Shown here one piece after another: positions 1,778 to 41,851 of a stretch of 64,000 nt of DNA (position 1 is its first letter; each line of letters opens with the position of its first letter). The DNA is from an archaeon SCG-AAA382B04. GTDB taxonomy: Archaea; Halobacteriota; Methanonatronarchaeia; Methanonatronarchaeales; Methanonatronarchaeaceae. The stretch covers positions 19,521 through 83,520 of the forward strand of contig PZKD01000125.1 in the NCBI GenBank assembly GCA_003034855.1, in the 5' to 3' direction. A program made the translations under genes and the position numbers. A model generated the notes under the pieces. That model worked only from the letters and a program-made list of their open reading frames with translations. It did not search any database and was not told the DNA's origin.

Positions 1778-1827
1778 GTGAACTACCCCTACCTAACTCA
1801 CTTCGCTTGTGAGGAAGGGGCTTCCTG
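1778..1827 (-). repeat. IS end module (tnpB 3' side, RE-like) forming an imperfect hairpin
   Basis: Sequence gtgaactacccctacctaactcacttcgcttgtgaggaaggggcttcctg. ctcac(1797-1801) pairs with gtgag(1809-1813), and cccct(1786-1790) pairs with agggg(1816-1820). It overlaps the tnpB stop codon. Confidence 0.6.
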
Positions 1828-3010
1828 TTTCTATGACGAAGCTTGCAGACACATCTCTAAAGTTGGTGTCCGTAGAGGCTTCAGTCTCCACAGGCGTGAC
1901 TTTGGCTCGTCCCTCGCCTAAACTTTTTTCTAAAATATTCTGTGCAGCATTATAGTCTCTATCCGTTTTATATCCACAACTTGGACAGCTATGTTCTCGT
2001 TGCCATAGGGGCTTATTGGTTTTAACACCACATTGGGAGCATTTTTTGCTAGTATCTTTTGGGTCAACCAGAACTACTTCTATACCAGCACTCTCAGCCT
2101 TGTACAGAAGCAACTGGATGAACTTCCTCCAACCAGAATCAAGCGTGTTCTTGCTATTCATCTTGCCCTGAACCATGCTAGAGATGTTCAAATCTTCCAA
2201 CACTATTCTATCGTATTTATTGACATAAGCATTAGACAACTTATGGAGAAAATCCATACGCCTATTTTTCACCTGTTCATGAAGTTTGGCCACCCGCTTT
2301 CGCTGTTTCTTGTGGTTGTTACTCCCCTTCTCTTTCCGGCTTAAATTTCTCTGGGCTTTCTTTAATTGTTCTTCGGCTTTCTCCACATTCTTTGGATGTT
2401 CAACTCTGTTACTATCACTATCAACAATAAAATTCTGGATACCAAGGTCAATACCTACAGCTTCAACGTCATCAGAGTTAACTGAGTTCTGTTTTTCTGT
2501 TTCTTGTTCGGTTTGGAAGATTGCGTACCATTCACCAGTGTTGTTTCTTTTGATAATTACGCCTTTGGCTTCTTCTTCGAGTTCTCGATGCAACTGAATC
2601 GGTATCTTCCCTATCTTCGACAACCTAAGTTTATCCAATCGGTTCTCTGTCCTTTTTAGCTTGAATCCTGACTGATTGTACTCAATAGTCTTAAACCATT
2701 CCTCCCCCTTACACCGTAGTTTCCCAACTTTATATCCATTCCTTTTCTGCTCAGATAGAGATTTGAGGTTGTCGTATAGTTGTTTTAGCACCATTTGTAG
2801 GACTTTGCTGTGAACCTGTTTTAATTCAGTCCACTTTTTCTTGAGTTTTGGAAGTTGTTTCTGAAGTTCGTAGCGAGAAGGTGTTTCGTCTTTCTTGTTT
2901 AGTTTTTCAAGGAAGTGGTTGTAGACTTGTCGACATAGGTCAAGATTTTTCTCTAGCACCTTCTTATCTTTTTCTGAAGGATAGAGACGATACTTATAAC
3001 TCAAATTCAT
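1793..3010 (-). CDS. tnpB: TnpB (IS200/IS605-family OrfB, RNA-guided DNA endonuclease class)
   Basis: 405 aa. N-terminus YKYRLYPS. RuvC-I GIDLGI, RuvC-II VLEDLN, zinc finger CSQCG...CPSCG, RuvC-III DRDYNAAQNI. All catalytic residues appear intact. Confidence 0.9.
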   Translation of the reverse strand: MNLSYKYRLYPSEKDKKVLEKNLDLCRQVYNHFLEKLNKKDETPSRYELQKQLPKLKKKWTELKQVHSKVLQMVLKQLYDNLKSLSEQKRNGYKVGKLRCKGEEWFKTIEYNQSGFKLKRTENRLDKLRLSKIGKIPIQLHRELEEEAKGVIIKRNNTGEWYAIFQTEQETEKQNSVNSDDVEAVGIDLGIQNFIVDSDSNRVEHPKNVEKAEEQLKKAQRNLSRKEKGSNNHKKQRKRVAKLHEQVKNRRMDFLHKLSNAYVNKYDRIVLEDLNISSMVQGKMNSKNTLDSGWRKFIQLLLYKAESAGIEVVLVDPKDTSKKCSQCGVKTNKPLWQREHSCPSCGYKTDRDYNAAQNILEKSLGEGRAKVTPVETEASTDTNFRDVSASFVIETGSPFLTSEVS

Positions 3011-3230: not shown

Positions 3231-3854
3231 TTAGAGTTCAGCTTCGAAGTCTTCTATTGAGTATTTGAATTTTTCTTCGTCGCTTAATCTTCCTTGTTGT
3301 TTTACTGTTTCTCTTGCTAATAACCAATAGACTGTTGCTAGTGCTTTTCTTCCCTTGTTGTTTGTGGGTATCACTAAGTCAACGTTGGATATCATGTTGT
3401 TGCTATCGCATAGTGCTACTACTGGTATTCCTGATGTGTTTGCTTCTTTTAGAGCTTGTTTATCTCCTATTGGATCAGTTGCTAGTAATACTTCTGGTTC
3501 TACGTATGATTCTAGGTTTGGGTTGGTTAGTGTTCCTGGGATCATTCTATCGACTATTGATTTTCCCCCAACTATTTTTGCAAATAGTTTTGCGGGTTTT
3601 TTACCGTATTCTCTGGCTGAAACTACTAATATGTCAGATGGATCAAATTGTGAAAAGAATTTTGCTGCTGTTTTTATTCTTTTGTCTGTTTCTTCTATAT
3701 CAAAAATGTATAATCCATCTTCTCGTGCTTTGTAGATGAAGTCTTCTATGTCTTTGGTTTTATGTTGGGTTCCTATATGTACTCCTGTTTCGAGATACTG
3801 TTCTGGTTTAATAAGTGTTTGAGTTCCTTCTTCGACCATTTCGATTTCTTCCAA
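3231..3854 (-). CDS. rps2: 30S ribosomal protein S2 (uS2)
   Basis: 207 aa with a recognisable uS2 sequence ([10 protein letters not shown]..., [15 protein letters not shown]). Sits in the eno-rps2 context. Confidence 0.95.
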
Positions 3855-3863
3855 TTTAACACC

Positions 3864-5099
3864 TCATGTTTGTAAGTTTGTTAATCCTATATTGCTTTTT
3901 TCTTCAATCCTAATCAATTCATTTAATTTTGCAGTTCTTTCTCCATTTACTGCTCCACATTTTATTATTTCTGATGTAGCTACGGCAAGATGTGCGATTG
4001 ATGTGTCTGTTGTTTCTCCTGATCTATGTGAAACTGTTATTTTATAGTTGTTTTCTTTTGCTAATTTTATTGCTTCTATTGTGTCTGTTAGTGTCCCTAT
4101 CTGATTTGGTTTAATTAGGACTGTGTTGGCTGATTTTTTATTAATTCCTTCTTGTATCCTATTTTGATTTGTTACGAATAAGTCATCTCCACAGATCAAC
4201 ACATCTTTGTTTATTTTATCTTTTATCTTGCTAAAACCTTCAAAATCTTCTTCCTGTAAGGGGTCTTCTAGATATTTTATGTTATATTCTTCTACTAATT
4301 TTTTCATAAATCTTATTTGTTGATTTGTTTCTTTGTTTTCGCTTCTTCTGTATTCATAGTTTTTTCCATTCCACATTTCACTAGCCGCTACGTCTATGCC
4401 TAGTCTTATTTTGGCGTTTTTTCTTTTTTCGATCTTTTCAGTTGATTTTTTTAGTATATCTAATGCTTCTCTGGTTTTTAATGATTCTACCCATCCGCCT
4501 TCGTCTCCTTTTCCACCGCTGAATGATTTATTTTTTTCTTCTAGTATTTTTTTTATTTGATGATGGACCTCTGCGTTTGAGATTATTGCTTGTTTTTCAG
4601 ATTCTACTTTTGTTGGTAGTGTTAGGAATTCTTGTATTTCCGTTGCTCCTTTTCCTGCATGTTCTCCTCCCTCGATCATGTTTCCTAGAGGTAATGGAAG
4701 GGATGGTTCGGTATCTGCAAGTTCTGTTAAGTATTCATAGTATGGAATTTGTTTTGTTTTTGCTGCTAGTTTTGAGGTGGCCATTGATAATGCTATAGCC
4801 CCATTTCCTCCTAGTTTTGAAAAATTATCCGTGCCATCTAACTTTTTTAATTTTTGATCTATTTTTTGTTGATTTGAAGGATCTAGGCCTACAAATTCAT
4901 TTTTATTATCTCGAATCGTTTTTATTGTTGAATCAACACCTTCTTTTGGGAATGCGGTTGCTTCAAATTTTCCAACACTTGCTCCACTAGGAGAGGAAAC
5001 CCTCCCAAGTTCTCTTTTAGATTTGACTTCTATTTCTATTGTTGGTTCTCCTCGGCTATTAATGGTTTTTCTTGAATGTATGTCTTTTATCTTTGTCAT
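3864..5099 (-). CDS. eno: enolase
   Basis: 411 aa. N-terminus SRGEPTIEIEV, C-terminal SHRSGETTDTSIAHLAV motif. Confidence 0.95.
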   Translation of the reverse strand: MTKIKDIHSRKTINSRGEPTIEIEVKSKRELGRVSSPSGASVGKFEATAFPKEGVDSTIKTIRDNKNEFVGLDPSNQQKIDQKLKKLDGTDNFSKLGGNGAIALSMATSKLAAKTKQIPYYEYLTELADTEPSLPLPLGNMIEGGEHAGKGATEIQEFLTLPTKVESEKQAIISNAEVHHQIKKILEEKNKSFSGGKGDEGGWVESLKTREALDILKKSTEKIEKRKNAKIRLGIDVAASEMWNGKNYEYRRSENKETNQQIRFMKKLVEEYNIKYLEDPLQEEDFEGFSKIKDKINKDVLICGDDLFVTNQNRIQEGINKKSANTVLIKPNQIGTLTDTIEAIKLAKENNYKITVSHRSGETTDTSIAHLAVATSEIIKCGAVNGERTAKLNELIRIEEKSNIGLTNLQT

Positions 5100-5408: not shown

Positions 5409-6068
5409 TCAGCTTATTAGTATCTCACATTCTACTATTATTTTTTTGGAAAATTTTGTATAGTTTCGTATCTTTGTCCTTCTTTTCTTGTTTATTTTAC
5501 TACCAAATTCGTGGTAATTTTGTGGGTTATTGAATCTTAAAAAAAATATCTTACAGGTCCGATAAGGATATTTTGCTAGGTCAGAATTAGTTATTTTTTT
5601 TATCTCTTCCATTATTTGACTCAGATTTTTTTCCTTTAGATCCAATAGCTCTATAAAGTTCTTGTTTTCTTCTAATTTTTTAATTAAGTCTTTTTGTTCC
5701 TTTTTTTTATTAATTAATTTTTCTAATTTCTTAGTTAAAAAAGAAGTTTGTTTTTTACTGAGATCATAATTTTCTTTTTGGGAATAAATTTTATTATATA
5801 AGTCTTTTATAGAAAATTCAAATTCTATCAAAGAAATTAGTAGGTTTTTTATTTTCTTATTTGTATTAATTTTAGTTTTTTCATCTTTATATATGCCTAA
5901 ATTTGTTATTAGTTCTTTTAAGATATCTTTATTTTCTTTAGTTTGGTTTAATATTTTATCTAGTTCTTTACTGTGCTTTTTTAATTCTTTATTAGATAAT
6001 TGTTCAGCTAGTCTTTGAATTTTAGACTCTATTTTATGAGCTTTTTTTAATTCAGTTTTTAGTTTCAT
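5409..6068 (-). CDS. hypothetical Lys-rich coiled-coil protein
   Basis: A 219-aa open frame in very AT-rich DNA, which is unlikely by chance. Heptad-like K/E/L/I composition. No motif I recognise. Confidence 0.35.
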   Translation of the reverse strand: MKLKTELKKAHKIESKIQRLAEQLSNKELKKHSKELDKILNQTKENKDILKELITNLGIYKDEKTKINTNKKIKNLLISLIEFEFSIKDLYNKIYSQKENYDLSKKQTSFLTKKLEKLINKKKEQKDLIKKLEENKNFIELLDLKEKNLSQIMEEIKKITNSDLAKYPYRTCKIFFLRFNNPQNYHEFGSKINKKRRTKIRNYTKFSKKIIVECEILIS

Positions 6069-6097
6069 TTATTTCTCTTCTTTTTTTTAATATTAAG

Positions 6098-6225
6098 CGC
6101 TGGGGAAGGGATTTGAACCCCCGAGTGCCGTTAGGCACACTGGCTTTCTTGAACTTCCTATTAGTTCTCAAGGCCAGCGCCTTTGGCCCCATATATGTGG
6201 TTGGGCCGGACTTGGCTACCCCAGC
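6098..6225 (-). tRNA. tRNA-Ser(UGA), 128 nt, with two putative introns (D-loop and anticodon loop)
   Basis: Reverse complement reads GCTGGGG TA GCC...GGC G CTGGC CTTGAG..A GCCAG TGTGCCTAACGGCACTC GGGGG TTCAAAT CCCTT CCCCAGC G. The long variable arm marks a type II tRNA. It is about 42 nt longer than a mature tRNA-Ser. Confidence 0.75.
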
Positions 6226-6265
6226 TTCTAATGTAAAAAATAGGAAAATAGTGAAGATATTTGTT

Positions 6266-6577
6266 TTAGTTTTGGATTACTAGTTCTATATGCACACCGT
6301 CTGGGACTTGAAGCCGCATTAGTTGTCTTAGAGCTCTTTCATCGCTTTCGATGTCTATTAGTCTTTTGTGTATTCTCATCTCCCAGTGTTCCCAAGTGGC
6401 TGTTCCTTCTCCATCCGGTGATTTTCTTGTTGGGACTTCTAGTTTTTTAGTTGGTAGAGGTATTGGTCCACGCATTTCCACATCTGTTCTATCTGCTACT
6501 TGTTGTATCTCCTCGGTTACTCCTCTTATTTTTTCTGTTTCTGTTCCGTTAAGCCTGATTCTGGCGCTCTGTTTCAC
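6266..6577 (-). CDS. rps10: 30S ribosomal protein S10 (uS10)
   Basis: 103 aa with uS10 sequence. Lies downstream of tuf, as in archaeal str-like clusters. Confidence 0.95.
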
Positions 6578-6592
6578 TGTATCACCAATTTT

Positions 6593-7864
6593 TTATTCTC
6601 TTTCTTCGATGTCCATCACCATTCCTGCAGCAATGGTTTGTCCCATATCTCTTATTGCGAATCTTCCAAGTTGTGGAATTTCTTTTACTTTTTCGATTAC
6701 TAGCGGTCTTTGTGGTTTAACTTCTACTATTGCTGAGTCTCCTGATTTTATGAAATCTGGGTTTTCTTCTTTTACTTCTCCGCTTTTTGGATCCATCTTT
6801 TTCTCGATGTTTGTTATTGTACATGCGATTTGGGCTGTATGTGCGTGAAATACTGGGGTGTATCCTGCGGTTATTGCGCTTGGGTGTTGTAGTACAACTA
6901 TTTGGGCTTTGAATGAGTCTGCTACTGTTGGTGGGTTACTTGTATGTCCAGCTACGTCTCCTCTTCTTATTTCATCTTTTCCTACTCCTCGTACGTTGAA
7001 GCCTACGTTGTCTCCTGGTCCTGCTTCTGGAACTTCTTCATGGTGCATTTCTATGCTTTTTACTTCTCCTACTTCACCACTTGGTTGGAAACTTACTTTG
7101 TCTTCTGGGTTTAGTTTTCCTGTTTCTATTCTTCCAACTGGAACTGTACCTATTCCGCTTATGCTGTATACATCTTGGATTGGTATTCTTAGGGGCAGAT
7201 CCACTGGTTCTTCTGGTTTATTTAGTGAGTTTAGTTCTTCTAGTAATGTTGGGCCATCGTACCATGGTGTTTTATCAGTTTTCTCTGATATGTTTCCGCC
7301 GTTTAGTGCGCTTACTGGGATGTATTGTACGTTATCTGGATCGAATCCTATTGTTTGTAGTAATCCGTTTACTTCGGATTTTACTTGTTCGAATTTGTTT
7401 TCTTCCCAATCTACTAGGTCCATTTTGTTTATCGCTATTGATAATTGGTTTATTCCTAGTGTTTTTGCTAGAAAGATGTGTTCTTTTGTTTGGGGTTTTA
7501 CTCCTTCACTTGCATCAACTACGAGTGTTGCAGCATCTGCTTGAGATGCTCCTGTTATCATATTTTTTACGAAGTCTTTGTGTCCTGGACAATCGACAAT
7601 TGTGAAGTTGTAGTTGTCGGTGTCGAATTCTTTGTGAGCAATGTCGATAGTTAATCCTCTTTCTCTCTCTTCTCCTAATGAGTCCATTACCCATGCGAAT
7701 TCGAATGTACCTTTTCCTTTTTCTTCTGCTTCTTTTTTGTATTCTTCTATCACATGTTCTGGAACGTTTCCGGTTTCGTAGAGTAGTCTCCCTACGAGTG
7801 TAGATTTACCATGATCGACGTGTCCTATAAGTGCTAAATTCATATGGGGGTTATCATTTGACAT
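6593..7864 (-). CDS. tuf: translation elongation factor 1-alpha
   Basis: 423 aa. [10 protein letters not shown]-loop, DCPGH, NKMD. Confidence 0.97.
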
Positions 7865-23438: not shown

Positions 23439-23652
23439 TTGCTTTTCCAGCTGTTGAGCTCTCTCTTGTTATCTTTAAAACATCTCCAGGTTCTGCACCA
23501 ATTTCTTTAACAACAGGATCATTTCTTAGTATTTTTGGTAGATCGTCTAAATCGATGTTCTTCCGATCTATGAGTTCTTCTTTCTCATCTTCCGACATTA
23601 TTTCATGTTTTGGAACAGCCTCATGTTCCATAACTTCATACTCTTTGCTCAT
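23404..23652 (-). CDS. rpoH: DNA-directed RNA polymerase subunit H (Rpo5)
   Basis: 82 aa. HEAVPKHEI...LPKI...DPV...GAEPGDVLKITR is the RpoH signature. It is the first gene of the rpoHBA operon. Confidence 0.9.
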   Translation of the reverse strand: MSKEYEVMEHEAVPKHEIMSEDEKEELIDRKNIDLDDLPKILRNDPVVKEIGAEPGDVLKITRESSTAGKAIVYRYVIDRKE

Positions 23653-23678
23653 CTTATCCTCCTATATATTGCTCTAAA

Positions 23679-23752
23679 CGGGCTCGAGGGGATTTGAACC
23701 CCTGGCCGTCTGGTTAAAAGCCAGACGCTCTGCCAAGCTGAGCTACGAGCCC
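23679..23752 (-). tRNA. tRNA-Lys(UUU)
   Basis: Reverse complement reads GGGCTCG TA GCTC AGCTTGGCA GAGC G TCTGG CTTTTAA CCAGA CGGCC AGGGG TTCAAAT CCCCT CGAGCCC G, a clean cloverleaf. No CCA is encoded. Confidence 0.95.
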
Positions 23753-23988
23753 TATATTTTAAATTACATACCCTTAGCTTACTTCTGCATAATTCGGCAC
23801 AATTTTTTTGTAAAACGAGAGACTAGCATGCAAACCTTAGCTTTCGTTCTTTCCATTATTAAAACTTTTTACTAATTAAGTCTTTTCAATAATTTTTAGT
23901 TTATACTTTATGAATTTTTTTCTCTTTTTTCTATTTTTTATTGAACCATCCACAAAATTTTTATGTAGGTTATTGTGGTTTGATAGAA

Positions 23989-40402: not shown

Positions 40403-40624
40403 ATGTTTCCAAATGATAAAATAAAAGAACTAGTCAATAGTAAAATCAGAGTAGAGATGAAAGGAGAAGATTTAATCCTTGAAGGAAGATTAAGAGCAGC
40501 AGATGATTACATGAACATTCTCTTAGAAGACACAAAAGAAGTAGAGGATGAAAAAGAAAAAAGAGCTCTTGGATCAGTTTTACTAAGAGGTAACAACATC
40601 ATTTACATGGAAAAAATTGCTTAA
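40403..40624 (+). CDS. Sm-like archaeal protein (LSm)
   Basis: 73 aa. Sm1/Sm2 motifs ([35 protein letters not shown]). Confidence 0.9.
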
Positions 40625-41082
40625 TCCAAAGATTCAAATACAAGTTCTATAGCTTGTTCTGGGCTTTGCGCCTTTTGAATGAATTTATGCTTAGCTAAGT
40701 GTTCTGAAAAACCGCTGCCTAGTCCAATTACCTTTTTACCGATCTTTTTAGAAATAGCTATTTCAGATAATGTTCCATATCCTCCTTTTATTGAGATTAA
40801 TGCATCCGAACTCTTTGCTACAAGCACATTTCTGGCTTCACCCATACCACTAACAACCACATAATCGACATATTGATTTGCATCTTCTTTTCTATCAGAG
40901 GGAATTATTCCAACAACCTCACCACCAACCTCACTACATCCTCTCGAAGCAGCTTCCATAACACCTCCAAGACCACCACAAACCAAGGTAGCTCTCTTTC
41001 CAATCAATTTTCCAACTCTGTAAGCTAATTCTTTAGTTTCAGAATCAGCTCTTCCAGAGCCAATGACACCAATTTGAACCAT
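40621..41082 (-). CDS. TIGR00725/LOG-family protein
   Basis: [13 protein letters not shown]...[14 protein letters not shown]...PGGYGTLSE-like motifs. I start it at the ATG at 41082, which is preceded by gagagga. The track's upstream extension runs into the GC-rich RNA island. Confidence 0.8.
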
Positions 41083-41109
41083 ATTTATCCTCTCAAATTT
41101 TTTATAGTA

Positions 41110-41495
41110 GAGTATGGCAGAAAACCCCATGGCAAGCCGTGGGGATGAATGCCACACTTAAGTTGAAGTTGAAATGTTGGAGGAGAGCAACCTCTCCAAC
41201 AAGGTTTAAAGCTCCCTTTGTTGGCTGATAAGGCCATCTCCACATTGATGTGGGGGAGGTTCCCATCGCCAATGTTGGGACAGGCATTGAGACCATAGTG
41301 ATGTTGCACACCTAGGGACCACGATGTCGGTGTATTTCGTCCACTATGTTTTCCAAAGCCCGGTGGCTTGGGAGGCACCCACAGGGTGTTTGTCAAACAC
41401 ATAGCTCCGAACATAGCTCTTCTGCCACTTCCCTAAAGTGACATCGCATATGGCTAATCTCCTACCAAGCCCCGTCCCTTGGGGCAGAGTAGTTG
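41110..41495. ncRNA. GC-rich, helix-dense island: candidate large structured RNA of unknown class (strand unresolved)
   Basis: 33/60 G+C in 41341-41400 versus 18/60 in 41521-41580. There are many local and long-range helices (see finding). The overlapping ORFs have non-proteome-like composition. Confidence 0.5.
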
Positions 41496-41569
41496 ACTAA
41501 TACCAATATATTTTCTTGACGATACATTTATTATATACTTAAAACCAATATCTTTTGGTGGAATTAGCG

Positions 41570-41851
41570 ATGGAAACTCGTGACATGTTTTTAGCCTTCT
41601 TAATGGTTATATCTGTGATTGTTTTCTCATACGAATGGTTAACCACATTTTGGGGTCAATCAAATTCACTAATCGTGTTATCCGCAATTACACTTGTAGC
41701 ATCATTAGCTCTAATGATCCTATCTTTGAACAGTAAGTTGGATAAGATGGAAAAAAGGATTGATGAGAAGGAAAGATCATTGAGATTTAATATACAGAGC
41801 TTTGAAGAAGAAGTGGATGATAGATTAGATTCAATCAAGAAAAAGCTCTAG
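41570..41851 (+). CDS. hypothetical small membrane protein (two TM helices plus coiled-coil tail)
   Basis: METRDMFLAFLMVISVIVF...LIVLSAITLVASLALMILSL, then a K/E-rich tail. I prefer the ATG at 41570 over the track's TTG at 41555. Confidence 0.5.
   Translation: METRDMFLAFLMVISVIVFSYEWLTTFWGQSNSLIVLSAITLVASLALMILSLNSKLDKMEKRIDEKERSLRFNIQSFEEEVDDRLDSIKKKL

Follow-up and report, generated by a model that had tools for sequence, protein, structure and literature searches.

The GC-rich island at positions 41085-41500 of the window, by which we mean the whole stretch of 64,000 nucleotides (nt) analysed here from contig PZKD01000125.1 of the archaeon SCG-AAA382B04, is by its sequence an omega RNA of the IscB type (HEARO, RF02033) encoded on the minus strand. 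We interpret the 387-nt insertion that carries it (41111..41497, minus strand) as a gene-less miniature, a non-autonomous derivative of an IscB-encoding element of the IS200/IS605 family that resembles the palindrome-associated transposable elements (PATEs) and for which we propose transcription from a host promoter, and we place the probability of this reading at roughly 0.88. We observed homology, a conserved fold, both ends of the element and its status as an insertion; the island has no capacity to encode a protein, and another contig of the genome encodes an intact IscB of the same subfamily. A first-pass annotation of the same DNA had left the island as a large RNA that it could not place; our results assign it to an established class of RNA, found here in an unusual setting.

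When the GC content was scanned along the window, 300-nt segments with a GC of at least 0.47 had their starts confined to 41073-41253, bearing out the first-pass statement that this is the only long stretch of about half GC, and region 41111-41497 reached 50.9% as compared with 35.6% for the whole window. The fold z-scores of 41085-41500 were −3.5 for the minus strand and −3.9 for the plus strand, both strands folding better than every dinucleotide shuffle, and they lie in the extreme tail of a background scan (160 windows: mean −0.28, standard deviation 1.17, 5th percentile −2.34), in agreement with the description of a large, helix-dense structured RNA. At the Rfam gathering score the window contained two tRNAs and nothing else. 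The island had been judged by eye to be neither RNase P nor signal recognition particle (SRP) RNA, and Infernal cmscan gave the same answer: at the gathering score no part of the window matched RNase P (types A, M and T) or archaeal SRP, and permissive filters on 40950-41650 still gave no such match at E≤10, so that RNase P, SRP and other Rfam families were rejected. A match to SNORA79 (23.8 bits, E 0.13) was considered as an H/ACA-like RNA and rejected, since the spacing from pocket to ACA was unfit and the hairpin concerned is accounted for as the hairpin at the end of the element.

With permissive filters, the top match in 40950-41650 was HEARO RF02033 on the minus strand (41254..41497, model positions 1-211 of 211), with 21.9 bits and an E value of 0.025, the gathering score of this family being 83 bits. 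We then used as a signature the 19 positions shared by the island and the conserved HEARO consensus, which in the island correspond to the core CACCCTGTGGGTGCCTCCCAAGCCACCGGGCTTTG (helix 9 and its loop, 41354..41388, minus strand). On viral contigs the pattern produced seven matches, all seven of them genuine HEARO RNAs at 82-153 bits that typically had an IscB-like open reading frame (ORF) of 419-437 amino acids (aa) within about 60 nt downstream, and on metagenomes it produced 120 loci. With the signature masked, locus L158 still matched the island in collinear order, with 81% across 75 nt and 71% across 100 nt; this locus carries a HEARO of 59.8 bits followed, after a gap of 54 nt, by a 397-aa IscB (RRXRR 7e-64, HNH). 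The homology between the two sets in precisely at the insertion boundary (AGTCAAC, 41498) and extends to about 41225, some 25 nt ahead of the position of the L158 iscB start codon, with large gaps confined to hairpin tips and one optional hairpin.

Further loci of this subfamily were collected by a search with the L158 IscB; several are in archaeal genomic contexts, and in each of them a HEARO lies directly upstream of iscB. A nhmmer profile built from the four omega RNAs closest to the island, each adjoining an intact iscB (L158 3744-4036, L216 1152-1446, L219 1003-1292 and L220 1181-1432), with the island left out, found a single match in the 64 kb, at 41497-41226 on the minus strand (E 9.2e-40, 130.6 bits). 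These four iscB-adjacent RNAs themselves score between 56 and 70 bits and likewise fail the gathering score of 83 bits, which indicates that the RF02033 cutoff under-covers the subgroup. Automatic annotation therefore overlooks a whole set of IscB omega RNAs, with several members in archaeal genomes, although they adjoin iscB, and it overlooks their gene-less derivatives as well.

To evaluate the fold, we ran RNAalifold on the four references alone, with the island excluded, and obtained 81 pairs. In the island 63 of these were standard and 5 were not, while the remaining 13 belonged to one cleanly missing hairpin (63/68 present); moving the 3′ partners by 1-3 nt as a control reduced the standard pairs to 24-33. 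Six pairs of the island differed from all references on both sides and were still paired, and eight one-sided changes still formed standard pairs. Across the whole alignment 97.4% of the cells were paired, as compared with 38-48% in slid controls, and 23 of the 81 pairs showed changes on both sides. The hairpin missing from the island is also missing from the iscB-adjacent omega RNAs of L211 and L215 (iscB intact, 112-115 bits); its loss therefore does not indicate decay.

Homology, fold and covariation together define a scaffold of the HEARO type of about 275 nt (41222..41497, minus strand). It opens with helix H1 (41497-84/41466-57) and contains two long-range helices, H4 (41454-52/41270-68) and H7 (41408-04/41281-77), the latter formed by pairing of the conserved CCAACAUUGGCGAUG motif with GUUCGG, along with the further conserved helices H2, H5, H6, H8, H9, H10 and H12. 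Two 3′ stem-loops, H14 (41250-41) and H15 (41235-22), lie outside the Rfam model and are kept with wholly different helix sequences, CCACA/UGUGG in the island as against CCGC/GCGG and CUGU/ACAG in the relatives.

The first-pass annotation had leaned on G-T pairs as a sign of the plus strand, an argument that falls away, since the conserved minus-strand fold holds 11 G.U pairs and sets the strand as minus. The minus orientation, which it had also considered, agrees with the position of the island between the LOG-like gene and what is likely the ancestral promoter of that gene. The complementary segments that it had listed were present (41115-22/41420-27, 41175-82/41194-201, 41289-300/41342-53, 41322-28/41440-46, 41386-92/41394-400 and 41196-202/41218-24); as helices, they fared unevenly. 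Those at 41469-73/41481-85, 41294-300/41342-48 and 41125-32/41137-44, the palindrome at 41386-400 and the outer stem of the last hairpin are conserved in homologs, while 41322-29/41439-46, 41353-60/41365-71, 41376-80/41384-88 and the supposedly terminal pairing 41116-22/41420-26 are outside the conserved fold, because the conserved covarying helices use their bases differently. A switch had been suspected from TGTTGG at 41175, 41219 and 41273 and a single CCAACA at 41196. All four segments exist; the copy at 41273-41278 belongs to the conserved CCAACAUUGGCGAUG motif of helix 7 and the other copies are in a non-homologous linker, which leaves the switch without a basis.

A GC-rich island that folds with strong z-scores and reaches the gathering score of no Rfam family could also be a large structured RNA of a new class, or a very divergent RNase P or SRP RNA. 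Against this reading stand the failure to match either known RNA even at E≤10, the unambiguous homology to IscB omega RNAs (E 9e-40, with a common covarying fold), and nearest relatives that lack the island; we leave it almost no probability, and homology, fold and covariation refute it.

The coding capacity of the island was evaluated next to its fold. GenBank annotates a hypothetical protein, C9439_07775, at 41085..41414 on the minus strand, and a second ORF, 41102-41311, is nested inside it. What speaks for a protein-coding gene is an open frame of 109 codons that is annotated and ends 2 nt ahead of the LOG start codon. Its product, however, is rich in W, C, H, P and G and has only two acidic residues. 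In a word-indexed search of 5.8 billion clustered proteins the ORF matched itself alone, and HMMER against 1.84 billion representatives returned the ORF itself plus translated tandem repeats and nothing more. In all, among about 15 billion proteins no homolog of the island ORFs was found, and none of the six frames of the island had a Pfam match. Moreover, the frame overlies the conserved RNA and its DNA is homologous to non-coding RNA regions, where the short ORFs of other genomes differ from it and are just as spurious, for example those of 57-58 aa called on top of the omega RNA in L216-L219. We give a coding gene next to no credence, consistent with the earlier statement that the island is non-coding, and regard both ORFs as spurious; the annotation C9439_07775 should give way to a non-coding RNA or mobile-element feature.

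To place the island in its genomic context, we compared the site with the nearest relatives by LOG-like protein, L081 (66% identity), L082 (65%) and L083 (Ca. Methanohalarchaeum thermophilum, 55%). The LOG-like gene, of the SLOG cluster-4 family (TIGR00725; Pfam LDcluster4 5e-41) and with a product 100% identical to the one recorded for archaeon SCG-AAA382B04, occupies 40621..41082 on the minus strand directly downstream of the element, and a gene for a small membrane protein of the AF_1457 family runs divergently from it at 41570..41851 on the plus strand (ATG at 41570 from the sequence and the alignment; orthologs in L081-L083, PF27291). In L081 and L082 the two genes are also divergent, with spacers of 96 and 110 nt, while about 490 nt separate them in the window. 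When the flanks were joined by removal of 41111-41497, the remaining 100 nt aligned end to end with both spacers; since these are uninterrupted at the site (about 100 nt), the island is an insertion. In L083 the spacer between the same genes is occupied by an IS200/IS605 element with a Y1 TnpA fragment and a 358-aa TnpB (3599-4857 of MSDW01000002.1), so the site accepts such elements, and insertion sequences of this superfamily seem to have landed in the spacer repeatedly. A further TnpB fragment lies at 1359-1727 of L083.

The insertion is bounded by two recognisable ends. In all relatives, a hairpin lies directly 3′ of the iscB stop codon and is made of an outer stem, an internal loop of ATTCATC and TTCT, and an inner stem that is C-rich on one side and G-rich on the other. 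The last hairpin of the island (41111..41157, minus strand) has the same layout, as is visible in the alignment, with the outer stem UGGCA/UGCCA, the internal loop UUCAU / UUUUC and the inner stem CCCCACGG/CCAUGGGG. A covariance model, R1, was built from the post-iscB hairpins of six relatives with the island excluded; in the window, its sole significant match was 41157-41111 (30.7 bits, E ~1e-5, 14/14 pairs standard), the next best reaching 12.3 bits. On 20 metagenome HEARO loci without iscB the model had no matches, which says little because the model is subfamily-specific. Neither terminal inverted repeats nor a target duplication were found at the island, and a classical miniature inverted-repeat transposable element was rejected for this reason.

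Between the scaffold and the end hairpin there is a 64-nt linker (41158..41221, minus strand) at the position where complete elements have an iscB of about 1.2 kb, and the alignment with L158 fades to noise in it. No similarity of the linker to iscB or its flanks was found at the DNA or protein level in comparison with seven relatives, the most being a slight resemblance to the C-terminal ‘...LQF..*’ codons that was not significant, and no frame of the island holds an IscB remnant. The element thus retains the omega RNA at one end and the hairpin at the other, and nothing between the two encodes a protein; it amounts to a complete element minus the nuclease gene, and its layout is therefore PATE-like. 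The linker contains an orphan hairpin (41176-41200, minus strand, GUUGGAGAGG..CCUCCAAC) with no counterpart in any relative, for which an iscB remnant and a sequence made by the deletion are candidates.

HEARO is the omega RNA of IscB, situated upstream of iscB and bounded by the transposon end (PMC10055086). The island shares with RF02033 the core sequence and fold, with a 5′ GUCAAC stem that encloses a hairpin, the two long-range helices, a CACC...GCUNUG hairpin and the CCAACAUUGGCGA tail, and with the iscB-adjacent RNAs of its subgroup it shares the 3′ stem-loops, which the RF02033 model does not include (PMC10055086). As in other HEAROs, the scaffold begins at the element boundary with a variable flank upstream, at the guide position, which in published IscB biology is just 5′ of the scaffold (PMC10055086). 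Unlike them, it is followed after its end (41222) by the host LOG-like gene 140 nt downstream and by no iscB, and the missing adjacency marks it as a gene-less derivative; it also differs in its score against RF02033, in the missing optional hairpin and in hairpin tips shorter than those of its closest relatives. With the omega RNAs of L158, L216, L219 and L220 it has 71-73% identity over about 262 shared positions, the same helices and compensated changes. Those RNAs, in contrast, lie 25-70 nt upstream of intact iscB genes of 397-406 aa, are 80-88% identical to one another and carry an extra hairpin inside P1.

Protein-less PATE-like derivatives of IS200/IS605 elements in Geobacillus stearothermophilus often encode omega RNAs, for which use in trans has been proposed (Meers et al., PMC10055086). 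The element described here resembles them in that both ends and an omega RNA are present, a protein gene is lacking and a nuclease of the matching family is encoded elsewhere in the genome; unlike them, it is archaeal (from a single-cell genome related to SA1 / Methanonatronarchaeia), of the IscB type and seen in one copy. The omega RNAs of TnpB, or sense overlapping transcripts (sotRNAs; Halobacterium IS1341-type, RF03065 and RF02998), belong to the same superfamily of transposon-encoded guide RNAs, but, unlike the island, they overlap the 3′ end of tnpB and have a 3′ guide. A TnpB relic or TnpB omega RNA was rejected, as the island has no similarity to the TnpB region of the window or to the TnpB element of L083.

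Several observations weigh against the reading as an IscB-derived element, and we considered them together. The Rfam score of the island is far under the gathering score; it should be noted that degraded HEARO copies have been accepted down to 15 bits (Meers et al., PMC10055086). No iscB adjoins the island and the gene downstream is of the LOG-like / SLOG type, so the classical HEARO context is missing. Its identity to the subgroup is below that among the members themselves (71-73% vs 80-88%), and two of the five broken pairs fall in the last stem-loop; the broken pairs and the greater divergence allow for some relaxed evolution. A sequence-only hidden Markov model of the end hairpin was not significant (E 12). 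No second copy was found in the window, in plasmids and phages (blastn) or in viral and metagenome contigs (patterns derived from the ORF). Finally, characterised IscB guides are about 16 nt long, and transcription from the host TATA-like box would be expected to begin some 10 nt ahead of the scaffold, which is less than the length of such a guide.

A possible partner for the omega RNA is encoded on another contig of the same genome (70,212 nt; the contig of the island is 90 kb). This protein, P0165, is a 404-aa IscB of archaeon SCG-AAA382B04, 64% identical to the IscB of L158, with intact RRXRR (5.6e-65) and HNH domains. Its GenBank name, ‘paclitaxel/taxanoid biosynthesis susceptibility protein TS1’, is an evident mis-annotation. 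Homology of the scaffold to all relatives starts at GTCAA (41497), within 1-2 bases of the boundary 41497/41498, and the bases upstream differ from locus to locus, which places the presumed guide in 16 nt of host flank directly 5′ of the scaffold (AAAUAUAUUGGUAUUA, 41498..41513, minus strand). Further upstream, 25-35 nt from the element and about 30-40 nt from its scaffold, a TATA-like box TATATAATAAAT (41526..41537, minus strand) includes the block TAATAAA, which is conserved in the spacers of the relatives, and is likely the ancestral promoter of the LOG-like gene.

From these positions we propose the following reading. The element derives from a full one, has lost its iscB of about 1.2 kb but keeps the omega RNA end and the terminal hairpin end, and is inserted between the LOG-like gene and the likely promoter of that gene. 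Transcription would start from the host TATA box about 35 nt upstream; the transcript would open with a short 5′ guide taken from the flank, continue through the scaffold of the omega RNA and the hairpin at the element end, and probably run on into the LOG mRNA. The omega RNA may be loaded in trans by the P0165 IscB, as proposed for PATE-like elements, and an IscB loaded in this way would cut copies of the empty insertion site, favouring retention of the element.

Between use of the omega RNA in trans by IscB today and a recently orphaned relic that has yet to decay, we consider present use a real possibility at somewhat less than even odds. Slightly more probable, and close to even, is a dead relic, that is, the same iscB-less element without present function, carried passively in the LOG transcript or terminated before it. 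A relic would agree with the absence of a nuclease gene alongside, with the single copy seen in the searches made, and with a divergence exceeding that of other subgroup members, five pairs being broken, two of them among the five pairs of the last stem-loop. Orphaned HEARO copies are, in addition, common, as 20 of the 72 HEARO-signature loci with enough sequence had no long downstream ORF. It agrees less well with the retention of 93% of the pairs at 27-29% divergence, including compensated pairs, although much of that divergence probably predates the loss of the nuclease, and with the presence in the genome of an intact IscB of the same subfamily.

The position of the element between the TATA-like box (41526-41537) and the Shine-Dalgarno sequence and ATG of LOG suggests that the LOG mRNA most likely reads through it, and this raises the alternative of an exapted, cis-acting 5′ leader of the LOG-like gene, a minus-strand form of the leader considered in the first-pass annotation. 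Such a leader would either attenuate transcription at the terminal hairpin, which has a U-tract, or block the ribosome-binding site. In line with this, the minimum-free-energy fold weakly pairs UCUCA near 41290 with UGAGA of the Shine-Dalgarno region. On the other hand, LOG in the relatives has a spacer of about 100 nt without such a leader, the omega RNA fold accounts for every conserved feature of the island, and no leader-specific structure is independently conserved. We consider this alternative improbable. Hardly more favoured is the proposal that the element is kept because it is useful, either as a guide-only locus driven by the host promoter and serving P0165 in trans, or as an omega RNA leader that gates the LOG-like / SLOG gene; this would be an unlikely outcome on the present analysis.

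For the gene-less IscB-type element that we favour, the consequences are limited in reach, and the understanding of IscB / omega RNA systems is unchanged by it. A solo omega RNA immediately downstream of a likely host promoter, together with the IscB of its subfamily that another contig encodes, provides a testable pair for use in trans. The pair also bears on the question of how a guide external to an IscB element comes to be transcribed. Four aspects are modestly interesting: the host is an archaeon, a host promoter has probably been captured ahead of an external guide, an IscB resides in the same genome, and the Rfam threshold under-covers the subgroup.

Regarding the host neighbourhood, the first-pass annotation had pointed to an Sm-like protein gene 0.5 kb from the island. 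This association is coincidental, since relatives without the island preserve the Sm / radical-SAM / LOG synteny. In reference genomes, the LOG-like protein had only homologs of about 50% identity, mostly bacterial. No TnpA was found in the window. A solo TnpB of 405 aa that looks intact (1793-3010, minus strand; OrfB_IS605 2e-29, Cas12f1-like TNB 2e-25, HTH_OrfB) is located between a Memo-like gene and the gene for ribosomal protein S2, with no TnpA nearby, and its omega RNA would be expected over the 3′ end of tnpB, around 1740-2000.

Two loci among the IMG/VR viral contigs showed unusual HEARO arrangements. L084 has a tandem pair of HEARO copies upstream of one iscB (3455-3891, minus strand), and L090 has a weak HEARO of 48.8 bits (6777-6944, minus strand) directly upstream of a 1412-aa ORF that is not an IscB, starts with MIHTHVHTKYSL and resembles a PHP / DNA polymerase N-terminus.

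Additional folding outliers were observed in the background scan of the window. The 400 nt at 1101-1500 on the plus strand gave a z-score of −4.0. In the region 5601-6300, a very AT-rich patch (19% GC at 5601-6000) lies inside the ORF 5409-6068 (219 aa, no Pfam match), and the intergenic stretch that follows it gave −3.85 on the plus strand (5901-6300). The top background value, −4.6, was obtained at 23501-23900 on the plus strand, where a tRNA-Lys (23679-23752, minus strand) lies inside the segment and is the probable cause.

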